DNA of 64,000 nucleotides from Escherichia coli. Its GTDB lineage: Bacteria; Pseudomonadota; Gammaproteobacteria; Enterobacterales; Enterobacteriaceae. The notes beneath the pieces were generated by a model. That model was not told where the DNA came from. It saw only the letters and a program-made list of their open reading frames with translations, and searched no databases. A program made the position numbers and the translations under genes. Shown here in pieces: positions 7,078 through 49,677 of this stretch (positions within the stretch are counted from its first letter, which is position 1; each line of letters starts with the position of its first letter). The DNA is taken from NCBI RefSeq assembly GCF_022846255.1, contig NZ_AP025682.1. One strand, 5' to 3'.

Positions 7078-7273
7078 GGGCGACTCCTGTGATTTACATG
7101 TTTGTTTTTGGTAAATTTATTGTTAATTAACATCAATTATCAGAGAGACGGCATCGTGAAAGGACAATTCTGTGAAGGGCTTCATAAAAACAAGTGTAAA
7201 AGGAATTAAAGGCAGAAATAAAAGTCAGAAGTCATGCCCGTTTGCAAACAATTGGTTCACGAACGGGCAATTT

Positions 7274-41351: not shown

Positions 41352-41372
41352 CGACTCTTCAATAACTGACAA

Positions 41373-41398
41373 GGCCCGAGTTATCGGGCCTATTTTTT
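41373..41398. terminator. Bidirectional intrinsic terminator between uspE and ynaJ
   Basis: ggcccgag-ttat-cgggcc hairpin followed by T6. Confidence 0.6.
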
Positions 41399-41400
41399 AC

Positions 41401-41658
41401 TTACTGCTCTTCGCCGCCAAGGAAATAAATTCCCAACGGGATTGCCAGCAACACAGTAAAGACCAGGCTATAAACAAAAATCATCGATGACTGAATCACA
41501 TACATTGATGTCGTCCACTCAGACAGCGGAATATTGTACTGTTCTATAACGCCGCCGATGGTCGCGCGAGTCACAACCGACGCCGCAATAATGAAAACCG
41601 CCAACAAACCAAAGAGAAATTTCTTCCCTTTCGCTGACTTCAGTTTCGCCATAATCAT
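41401..41658 (-). CDS. ynaJ: DUF2534 small inner-membrane protein, 85 aa
   Basis: 85 aa, two TM segments; convergent with uspE and divergent from ynaI as in K-12. Confidence 0.8.
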   Translation of the reverse strand: MIMAKLKSAKGKKFLFGLLAVFIIAASVVTRATIGGVIEQYNIPLSEWTTSMYVIQSSMIFVYSLVFTVLLAIPLGIYFLGGEEQ

Positions 41659-41901
41659 GATGTAATCCTTGTGCAGACAAATTTCTTGTTACCTAAACGT
41701 AACAATACCATGACATTTTACCGTTGTCTGCTCTGAAAATCTCACCTCTTAGCTGGATTTACAATCAACGCATTGATTAGTTAGCTAATGTTGCAACTTC
41801 CTTCCCTGACTATTGATGATCTGAATGAATTGTCGCGGTAAAATAGTCCCGCCAGGGGTTTCCGGCATGACGACAATTATCTGGAGGAGCCTGATAAAAC
41901 A

Positions 41902-42933
41902 ATGATCGCTGAACTGTTTACAAATAATGTGCTTAATCTGGTCATTATTTTCGGTAGCTGCGCAGCATTGATTCTGATGAGCTTTTGGTTTCGCCGTGGA
42001 AATCGTAAAAGAAAAGGATTTTTATTCCATGCGGTGCAATTTTTAATCTACACCATAATTATTAGTGCTGTTGGTAGCATCATTAACTATGTTATAGAAA
42101 ACTATAAACTCAAATTTATCACCCCAGGCGTTATCGATTTTATCTGTACGTCCCTGATTGCGGTTATTCTGACGATTAAGCTATTTCTGCTGATTAATCA
42201 GTTTGAAAAACAGCAGATTAAAAAAGGTCGCGATATCACCAGTGCGCGGATCATGTCGCGCATTATCAAAATCACCATTATTGTGGTGCTTGTTCTGCTT
42301 TATGGCGAACATTTCGGCATGAGCCTTTCTGGCTTGTTGACCTTTGGTGGTATTGGTGGTCTGGCTGTCGGTATGGCCGGTAAAGATATTCTGAGTAACT
42401 TCTTTTCCGGGATTATGCTCTATTTCGACCGTCCTTTCAGTATTGGCGACTGGATCCGTTCACCGGACAGAAATATCGAAGGTACAGTAACGGAAATTGG
42501 CTGGCGAATTACCAAAATTAAGACCTTTGATAATCGTCCATTGTACGTACCGAACTCGCTGTTTTCGTCGATCAGCGTAGAAAATCCTGGACGAATGACC
42601 AACCGGCGCATTACCACGACCATTGGTTTACGTTATGAGGATGCGGCAAAAGTGGGCGTTATTGTCGAAGCCGTACGTGAGATGCTGAAAAATCACCCGG
42701 CCATCGACCAGCGACAAACCTTACTGGTTTATTTCAACCAGTTTGCTGATTCGTCATTAAATATTATGGTTTATTGCTTTACCAAAACCACGGTATGGGC
42801 TGAGTGGCTTGCTGCACAGCAAGACGTTTATTTGAAGATTATCGATATTGTACAGTCACACGGCGCGGACTTTGCCTTCCCCAGCCAGACGCTGTATATG
42901 GATAACATTACACCGCCGGACCAGGGTCGCTAA
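41902..42933 (+). CDS. ynaI: Small-conductance mechanosensitive channel (MscS family), 343 aa
   Basis: Multi-TM N-terminus followed by an MscS-type beta domain; 343 aa. Confidence 0.9.
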
Positions 42934-42983
42934 ATCAGACATCACTGGCGTTATCCACAAGGGTAACGCCAGTTCCCATCACA

Positions 42984-44597
42984 TTAATGCTTCACAATAT
43001 ACATAGTCCGACTGTACGCCACATCTTCAGGGTTATTAATGGGATAACCTTTCAGCCACGGCTTGATTAATCGTCCATTGGTATATTGATAAATTGGTGC
43101 AATCGGTGCTTGCTCCATGAGGATTTTTTCTGCCGCGTTGTAATCGGCATTACGCGCTTTAACGGTATTTTCCGTCGATGCCTGGGCCAGAACTTTGTCA
43201 TATGCCGGATTGTTAAAGCGTGAAATATTCCCGGAATGCGTTGACGTTAATAATGTCAGGAAAGTGGAGGGTTCATTATAATCCCCTACCCACGAGGCGC
43301 GGATAACATCAAAATTGCCGGTATTACGGCTATCGATATAGGTTTTCCATTCCTGGTTTTGCAATTTAACATCTACGCCCAGGTTCTTTTTCCACATCGA
43401 TGCTACAGCAATCGCAATTTTTTGATGGTTTTCTGAAGTGTTATACAAAAGCGTCAGCTTCAGCGGTTTTTGCGGACCATAACCAGCTGCGCTCAACAAA
43501 GTTTTTGCCTGCGCATTCAGTTCTTCCTGACTCATTTGTTCAAACGGCGAAGGTTCCGGCGTAAATCCCGCGGTAACATCTGGTGTAAAATGCCACGCTG
43601 GCTTTTCGCCCGTCCCCAACACTTTTTCGGTCATCAGGCGGCGATCTATCGTCATACTTAATGCCAGGCGAACGCGCTGATCTGCCGTCGGCCCTTTTTG
43701 CGTGTTAAACGCATAATAATAGGTCCCGAGCTGTGGCGGCGTATAAACCTGCCCCGGAATATCCTTCAACAACTTCTGATACATATTTTTCGGGAAGGAT
43801 TCGGTGATATCAATATCCCCCGCGAGATAACGCTTAGTGGCTGCGGATTCCTGATTAATTGGCAGGAAGGTCACTTTTTGCAGTACCGTTTTGGCGTTAT
43901 CCCAATAATGGGTATTCGGCACTACGACCAGTTTTTCATTGACTACGCGCTCTTTAAGAACATAAGCGCCATTGCCGATCAGATTTCCGGGTTTCGTCCA
44001 CTCTTTACTGCTTTCTACGTTGGCTTTTTGCACCGGGAAGAAGGCAAAGTTAGCGGTTAAATTCACAAACCACGGCAATGGTTTATCAAGCTGGATTTTC
44101 AAAGTATGGGCATCAACTGCGGTGACGCCAAGCTGGTCAGGCGCGGCTTTACCATCAATAATCGCCTGTGCGTTGTTGATTCCCGCCAGCGCGGCAAACC
44201 ATGCAAATGGCGATAGCGTTTTCGGGTCCACCAGACGTTGCCAGCTGTAGACAAAATCTTGCGCCGTTACCGGTGTGCCATCCGCCCATTTTGCGTTATC
44301 GCGCAGGGTAAAAGTCCAGATACGGTTGTCATTACTTTTCCACTGAGTCGCAACGCCGGGGACAATCTCCCCTTTCTCGTTCTGATTCACCAGTCCTTCA
44401 AACAGATCGCGAATGACCTGAATCTCCGGCAGGCCCACGGCTTTAGCGGGATCCAGCGACGCTGGCTCATCTTTAATGTGGCGCACCAGCTCCTGCTTCT
44501 CTGCCAGTACTGTGCCGCTCGGAACTTCAGCAGCATACGAAAGAGAAATGCTGCTGACCAACAGCGCACAACACGTGACTGAAACAGAGTGCTTCAT
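42984..44597 (-). CDS. mppA: Periplasmic murein tripeptide-binding protein (OppA paralogue), 537 aa
   Basis: Start at MKHSVSVTCCALLVSSISLSYA (signal peptide); family 5 solute-binding protein; 537 aa. Confidence 0.9.
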   Translation of the reverse strand: MKHSVSVTCCALLVSSISLSYAAEVPSGTVLAEKQELVRHIKDEPASLDPAKAVGLPEIQVIRDLFEGLVNQNEKGEIVPGVATQWKSNDNRIWTFTLRDNAKWADGTPVTAQDFVYSWQRLVDPKTLSPFAWFAALAGINNAQAIIDGKAAPDQLGVTAVDAHTLKIQLDKPLPWFVNLTANFAFFPVQKANVESSKEWTKPGNLIGNGAYVLKERVVNEKLVVVPNTHYWDNAKTVLQKVTFLPINQESAATKRYLAGDIDITESFPKNMYQKLLKDIPGQVYTPPQLGTYYYAFNTQKGPTADQRVRLALSMTIDRRLMTEKVLGTGEKPAWHFTPDVTAGFTPEPSPFEQMSQEELNAQAKTLLSAAGYGPQKPLKLTLLYNTSENHQKIAIAVASMWKKNLGVDVKLQNQEWKTYIDSRNTGNFDVIRASWVGDYNEPSTFLTLLTSTHSGNISRFNNPAYDKVLAQASTENTVKARNADYNAAEKILMEQAPIAPIYQYTNGRLIKPWLKGYPINNPEDVAYSRTMYIVKH

Positions 44598-44659
44598 AAG
44601 TTTCCCTCTAACCGACATTAAAATTGATGCGTAATTATTTGTTTCGCTTTAAAGAAATG

Positions 44660-49559: not shown

Positions 49560-49677
49560 CTTTACTCCTTGTTGTCGCGGTGGTCTGCGGATTAAGCGCA
49601 AATAGCGTTTGCTGTGTTATTGACAGTTAGCATAAACTAGGTGTGACGTTAACTATATGTAAACAGGAAAGATAATC

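Follow-up and report, generated by a model that had tools for sequence, protein, structure and literature searches.

The FNR box is TTGAT-N4-ATCAA, with half-sites that face inward. The IHF core consensus is WATCAANNNNTTR, with phage lambda H' as the canonical site; true IHF sites are asymmetric, and IHF is most abundant in stationary phase. Four canonical elements of an IHF site are described, namely a WATCAA motif, a TTR motif, flexible AA/TT steps set 9 bp apart where the prolines intercalate, and, in some sites, an A-tract (PMC1874591). A further described system operates at the locus under study, for which the Park et al. 2013 supplements record an ArcA ChIP-chip/ChIP-seq peak at ynaJ, a ynaJ ArcA box (ttgttacctaaacgtaac(aat), -12 to +9 of the start site), and a 3.4-fold repression of ynaJ by ArcA.

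The palindrome compared with these systems, AATCAACGCATTGATT, lies in a non-K-12 Escherichia coli chromosome, of which a stretch of 64,000 nucleotides (the window) was analyzed. It is organized as perfect 6-bp arms, AATCAA and TTGATT, around a 4-bp CGCA spacer, and its symmetry stops at the arms, with C at 41762 and A at 41779. The element lies in a 243-bp gap (41659-41901), 99.6% identical to that of Nissle 1917, between the divergent genes ynaJ and ynaI. Along the window the genes run fnr (39.5-40.2 kb), uspE (40.4-41.35 kb), ynaJ, ynaI, and mppA (42984-44618, - strand), with fnr 1.5 kb from the palindrome. The sequence-only reading had described a perfect palindrome of the form 6-N4-6 in the divergent ynaJ-ynaI intergenic region with fnr close by, and both sequence and annotation agree, fnr being annotated just upstream with uspE. 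The palindrome is nonetheless probably a chance, functionally neutral feature of a weakly constrained spacer with no dedicated factor, and the gap's conserved, ChIP-supported element is the ynaJ ArcA operator known from the literature. Feature coordinates are collected in the table. Also at this locus, the 49-bp convergent gap between uspE and ynaJ contains a G+C-rich hairpin, GGCCCGA-gtta-TCGGGCC, followed by TATTTTTT (41372-41397), which by its sequence looks like a bidirectional terminator common to uspE and ynaJ. A bioRxiv paper on RNA polymerase collisions (10.1101/2022.10.23.513370) refers to ynaJ many times.

Table. Features of the ynaJ-ynaI region, in window coordinates
Feature	Position	Strand	Description and basis
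ynaJ	41401..41658	-	DUF2534 membrane protein; ORF and RefSeq annotation of matching E. coli genomes
ArcA operator over ynaJ promoter	41686..41716	-	Park et al. 2013, matrix score, and conservation
ynaJ sigma-70 promoter	41702..41730	-	-35 cAGACA (41730-41725), 17-bp spacer, extended -10 TGgTATTGT (41710-41702)
Palindrome AATCAAcgcaTTGATT	41763..41778	none	AATCAA-cgca-TTGATT; sequence read directly
IHF core match	41763..41775	+	Exact, AATCAACGCATTG
IHF core match	41766..41778	-	Exact, AATCAATGCGTTG
IS5 target TTAG	41781..41784	none	K-12 lineage; separated from the right arm of the palindrome by 2 bp
Putative ynaI -10 TAAAAT	41839..41844	+	Conserved block and sigma-70 peak
ynaI	41902..42933	+	Low-conductance MscS-family mechanosensitive channel; ORF and RefSeq annotation of matching genomes

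Left of the K-12 IS5 site, window positions convert to K-12 coordinates as U00096.2 = 1437047 - window. The -12 to +9 span given for the ArcA box in Park et al. 2013 places the ynaJ start site at 41694, and a sigma-70 ChIP-seq peak at U00096.2 1395358 (Myers 2013) converts to 41689, with aerobic occupancy 9-fold higher. Across 30 orthologous regions the ynaJ promoter hexamers vary little or not at all. On the other side, the ynaI start site is likely near 41851, and the sigma-70 peak designated 'ynaI/insH-4' (about 1393980; Myers 2013) corresponds to about 41868. The palindrome centre, 41770.5, is located at -76.5 from the mapped ynaJ start and at approximately -80 from the probable ynaI start.

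The ynaJ ArcA operator consists of TGTTA-type direct repeats with 11-bp phasing and is 65 to 90 bp to the left of the palindrome; the two are different elements of the same gap. A matrix built from 114 published boxes and applied leave-one-out scores the operator at 15.7, 12.9, and 10.8 bits, the box at 41686 being the one at 15.7, a pattern suggestive of three - strand direct repeats (ATGTCA, TTGTTA, and AGGTAA) rather than the two of Park et al. An ArcA site extending to the palindrome was considered and rejected: over 41745-41800 the matrix finds nothing of 3 bits or more, and although the ArcA peak centres are offset from the box centre by 22 to 43 bp toward the palindrome, this is within the scatter of other ArcA sites in the same table. 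The strong ArcA peak of the gap is explained by the 16-bit ArcA box. The operator accounts for the aerobic-specific expression of ynaJ and for the sole strong ChIP peak in the gap, and redox control of the gap is carried by this operator, which covers the ynaJ -10 and start site.

The exact 16-mer of the palindrome is present once in the window, where 0.01 are expected, but this is a post hoc test, and the proper comparison is with perfect 6+6 inverted repeats of any sequence. With a 4-bp spacer there are 28 of these in the window versus 17.6 +/- 4.9 in block dinucleotide shuffles, and with spacers of 0 to 10 there are 250 in the 64-kb window versus 206 +/- 19. When the 243-bp gap is itself dinucleotide-shuffled, at least one perfect 6+6 repeat (spacers 0-10) appears in 42% of shuffles, and of the 12 short inverted-repeat pairs in the 361 bases around the palindrome, several exceed it in length. 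The palindrome is correctly observed, yet it is statistically not unusual. A larger dyad around it, TTAGCT...AGCTAA, was rejected, as its centre differs and its fold z-score is only -2.0.

An RNA element or terminator was also rejected, given a weak hairpin (-3.3 kcal/mol, with six mostly A-T pairs), an empty Rfam search (no match at the palindrome with E up to 1), and a position upstream of both start sites. The palindrome has no T run, the terminator scan makes no call there, and no sigma-70-like promoter using TTGATT is called on either strand. Lying between the divergent promoters and probably upstream of both starts, the palindrome would not be expected to be transcribed from either, and with its short, AT-rich arms it is unlikely to work as a hairpin.

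Among 80 ynaI loci retrieved, 30 ynaJ-ynaI gaps were aligned, and the divergent arrangement with a gap of 234 to 249 bp is common to Escherichia, Citrobacter, and Salmonella. Conservation across genera is seen in the blocks TTGTTAC-N6-GTAACAATACCATGACA and TGTCTGC, which belong to the ynaJ promoter with its ArcA operator, and in GTAAAATA (41838-41845), which contains the putative ynaI -10. The segment 41686-41716 is the most conserved block across the three genera, and GTAAAATA is the best conserved on the ynaI side. The palindrome lies in the most variable, central stretch of the gap; its 16-bp window ranks 159 of 228 in conservation within Escherichia. The core, ATCAA-N4-TTGAT, is kept in three of five diverged Escherichia lineages (E69, E1V33, and E. 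whittamii), and one arm is mutated in E. albertii and likewise in L074. Beyond Escherichia the palindrome is not kept: identity to the window in Citrobacter and Salmonella is 0.34 (rank 190 of 228), and nothing similar is present in the 22 orthologous gaps of these genera.

Citrobacter braakii and relatives have a longer and different palindrome, AGCGCTATTT-N6-AAATAGCGCT, where the E. coli palindrome falls in the alignment (L009 at 2359-2384 and also L010, with variants in L008 and L078 at 2358-2383). In both genera only the right-hand, ynaI-ward part of the palindrome is conserved and the left arm varies by species; the shared part could be fortuitous, or it could point to a half-site on the ynaI side. 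Within E. coli, the 40-mer at 41711-41750, between the ynaJ -35 and the palindrome, is matched in 888 of 5,426 genomes by megablast, compared with more than 5,200 for neighbouring 40-mers. The low count is due to two lineage-defining substitutions, as the window strain carries a minority allele (for example, T versus the K-12 C at 41727 and 41741).

The sequence-only reading had implied that the palindrome is the operator of an unknown factor. In a specific form of this idea, ATCAA-N4-TTGAT is bound by an Escherichia-specific dimeric factor that controls ynaJ and/or ynaI from approximately -76/-80. Across six diverged Escherichia sequences, identity is 97% at the ten arm positions (ATCAA/TTGAT) and 53% at the spacer and outer positions, and in three lineages the left arm persists beside a fully scrambled left flank. 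Better conservation of arms than spacer is the pattern expected of a dimer site, although it comes from only about three to four independent lineages. The central place between two divergent promoters also fits, and a 40-mer centred on the palindrome is exact in 5,229 of 5,426 complete E. coli genomes (96%), but the species varies too little, and its variation is too phylogenetically structured, for this figure to carry much weight, and near-invariance within E. coli does not show constraint. Moreover, conservation of ynaJ, ynaI, and their promoters is not accompanied by conservation of the element, there is no adjoining regulator gene, literature text searches on ynaI and ynaJ (top matches) reveal no factor mapped to the palindrome, and centres at -76.5 and about -80 are off the usual class I activator positions. 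Such an operator is improbable.

The fnr gene is close by, and the palindrome shares with the FNR box its pentamers and 4-bp spacing, but the half-sites of ATCAA-N4-TTGAT are in the opposite order and each faces outward. The sequence-only reading had noted the reversal and concluded that this is not an obvious FNR site, a conclusion borne out both by a scan allowing up to 3 mismatches, in which no FNR-like match overlaps the palindrome, and by Myers 2013. The latter has neither an FNR ChIP peak nor a predicted FNR site at the locus, and its Tables S5 and S6 (K-12) contain no FNR entry for ynaJ, ynaI, uspE, or the interval 1394-1396 kb. FNR is rejected on the reversed order, the absence of flanking partner half-sites, and the absence of a ChIP peak. 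ynaJ is derepressed in an fnr mutant by RNA-seq, and the FNR peak list has no corresponding peak (Myers 2013); derepression seen in RNA-seq only, with no FNR peak listed, points to an indirect effect of FNR on ynaJ. ynaI is approximately 2.5-fold up anaerobically, with sigma-70 occupancy also increased and no FNR ChIP peak listed (Myers 2013).

The sole FNR-like match in the gap at this stringency is ATGATCTGAATGAA (41816-41829), which has 2 mismatches and lies over the presumed ynaI -35 region. Only its left half (ATGATCTGA) is kept in Citrobacter and Salmonella, and matches of the 2-mismatch level occur about once per kb.

CRP was likewise considered and rejected. Genomic SELEX names ynaJ as a predicted new CRP target (Shimada 2011, PMC3105977), yet the IS5-free gap lacks a CRP consensus match, with no TGTGA-N6-TCACA at up to 3 mismatches in 41640-41910; the SELEX signal may have another origin, for instance the coding sequence or DNA next to IS5. 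Consensus scans of the gap for Fur, LexA, and NsrR give no match, and the PPTP-seq supplements mention neither ynaJ nor ynaI.

IHF is the only known-factor candidate for the palindrome. The sequence AATCAAcgcaTTG is an exact IHF core, and it matches on both strands because the element is palindromic; the palindromy is incidental to IHF recognition. The window contains seven core matches versus 3.3 expected, and two of these are the palindrome. Three of the four canonical elements described in PMC1874591 are present, WATCAA (as AATCAA on both strands), TTR (as TTG on both strands, 4 bp 3' of WATCAA), and a TT step. In the + reading the AA at 41767-41768 and the TT at 41758-41759, 9 bp 5' of the core AA, are correctly spaced; in the - reading there is a TA 9 bp upstream, and AA is off by one base. 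An A-tract of 4 to 6 A is absent from the 5' halves in both readings (ACCTCTTAGCTGGA for + and GAAGTTGCAACATTAG for -). The palindrome therefore resembles IHF sites in its 13-bp core, in the TT step 9 bp 5', and in its intergenic place between promoters, and differs from them in lacking an A-tract and a peak in the one IHF ChIP-chip list consulted, in its G+C-rich spacer, and in its restriction to Escherichia.

The - strand core is exact in five of seven Escherichia lineages (E. coli, Escherichia sp. MOD1, E69, E1V33, and E. whittamii) and has one mismatch in E. albertii and L074. None of the 22 Citrobacter and Salmonella orthologous gaps has an IHF core anywhere, on which ground a conserved need for IHF with turnover of its site was rejected.

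Occupancy was taken from Table S4 of Myers 2013, a ChIP-chip data set for MG1655 in anaerobic glucose minimal medium, which covers one condition and one K-12 strain in which IS5 abuts the palindrome. The palindrome corresponds to U00096.2 1395269-1395284, and no IHF peak is listed between 1393174 and 1402582, although the list averages about one peak per 4.6 kb. The nearest peaks are at 1392853-1393174 and 1402582-1402777. The former converts to window 42674-42995, at the ynaI 3' end and the ynaI-mppA convergent junction, a segment with no exact IHF core match. For the palindrome, no overlap is present in any of the FNR, IHF, and ArcA peak lists consulted, all from K-12.

The predictive value of the core was calibrated on positions 1-250000 of MG1655, over which U00096.2 and U00096.3 share their numbering, using peaks +/- 100 bp. 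Exact cores fall in peaks in 10 of 14 cases (71%), compared with 21% expected by coverage (p = 7e-5). Of the four unbound cores, one is inside IS1 and three have G+C-rich spacers (CGCT, AACG, and CAGC); one of these three, AATCAACGCTTTG, is nearly identical to the + reading of the palindrome. Spacer composition is suggested to help decide IHF occupancy, and the exact core is a good but insufficient predictor, its exceptions being G+C-rich in the spacer. An ArcA ChIP-chip peak is called only 46 bp from the IS5 boundary in Park et al. 2013, and, assuming the ArcA and IHF arrays to be comparable, we take it that proximity to IS5 does not blind the array. A typical IHF site at this place should be visible, given the 10 of 14 in the calibration and the ArcA peak near IS5. 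The palindrome behaves, at least in K-12 and that condition, like the minority of consensus matches with no detectable binding, and its likeness to the IHF core is real, but with no IHF binding detectable in K-12 by the sole occupancy data.

These observations bear on whether the palindrome is a weak or condition-specific IHF site limited to Escherichia, with IHF binding WATCAA-N4-TTR in either direction, bending the DNA midway between the promoters, and modulating ynaJ and/or ynaI, for example in stationary phase. The exact core on both strands, its persistence in most Escherichia lineages, the 71% occupancy in the calibration, and a position between divergent promoters (approximately -76/-80) that is typical of an architectural protein are all consistent with such a site. 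However, there is no ChIP-chip peak in MG1655 in spite of the peak density and informative probes on the IS5 side, there is no A-tract either way, the spacer is as G+C-rich as that of the unbound AATCAACGCTTTG, and the 22 coreless Citrobacter and Salmonella gaps show that the locus has no conserved need for IHF. An IHF site of this kind is the foremost alternative to chance, though an unlikely one. Taking the protein-site ideas together, it is doubtful that an Escherichia-specific site, either for IHF under other conditions or for a dimeric regulator, couples ynaJ and ynaI and that IS5 severed ynaI from it in K-12. If it did, studies of native ynaI in K-12, which report very low expression and no regulator, would describe a crippled promoter region, and binding of IHF or another factor would add a minor, lineage-specific layer to the control of a poorly understood mechanosensitive channel.

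A neutral palindrome remains the preferred interpretation. The operator implied by the sequence-only reading is not supported, in that the palindrome is not conserved beyond Escherichia and coincides with no peak in the ChIP lists consulted; the description given there holds, and the core match to IHF on both strands had been missed. As it stands, the palindrome is simply another short one in a spacer distal to the promoters, and the regulation known for this gap, ArcA repression of ynaJ, is in the literature.

K-12 carries IS5 between ynaI and ynaJ (PMC11677980), as seen in split BLAST matches in K-12 strains, duplication of TTAG at the junctions, and an annotated IS5 transposase between the two genes (K-12 locus L001, 3127-4325). 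The identical junction is present in 351 of 5,426 complete genomes and the gap is intact in about 5,055; a hot spot for IS5 was rejected, since a single shared junction in 351 genomes is one event. One might propose that a palindrome that is bendable or bound by IHF made the adjoining TTAG a target, the insertion being only 2 bp away, and the IS5 literature does tie insertion to local DNA structure and IHF (PMC11677980). But there was only one insertion event, YTAR target tetramers are common, and the same paper ascribes the IHF effect to an internal site of IS5 itself, making this proposal highly improbable.

The insertion leaves K-12 ynaI with only 117 bp of native upstream sequence before the start codon, followed by IS5, and the K-12 ynaI promoter works without the palindrome, from which IS5 separates it. 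At the K-12 ynaI promoter, Reg-Seq found no site for a regulator, and because IS5 lies between the palindrome and ynaI in that strain, this result is silent on the palindrome. Conclusions on native YnaI expression from K-12 (Reg-Seq and possibly a qPCR study) may not transfer to wild E. coli.

The ArcA matrix identifies further box matches elsewhere in the window, at 7109-7126 (+, 18.4 bits), 2924-2941 (-, 17.2 bits), 49646-49663 (+, 16.6 bits), and 154-171 (+, 15.1 bits). Those at 7109 and 2924 are not among the published boxes listed in the available part of the supplements. The match at 49646 is the published ycjG/tpx box, and that at 154 has the same sequence as the published ydcJ box.
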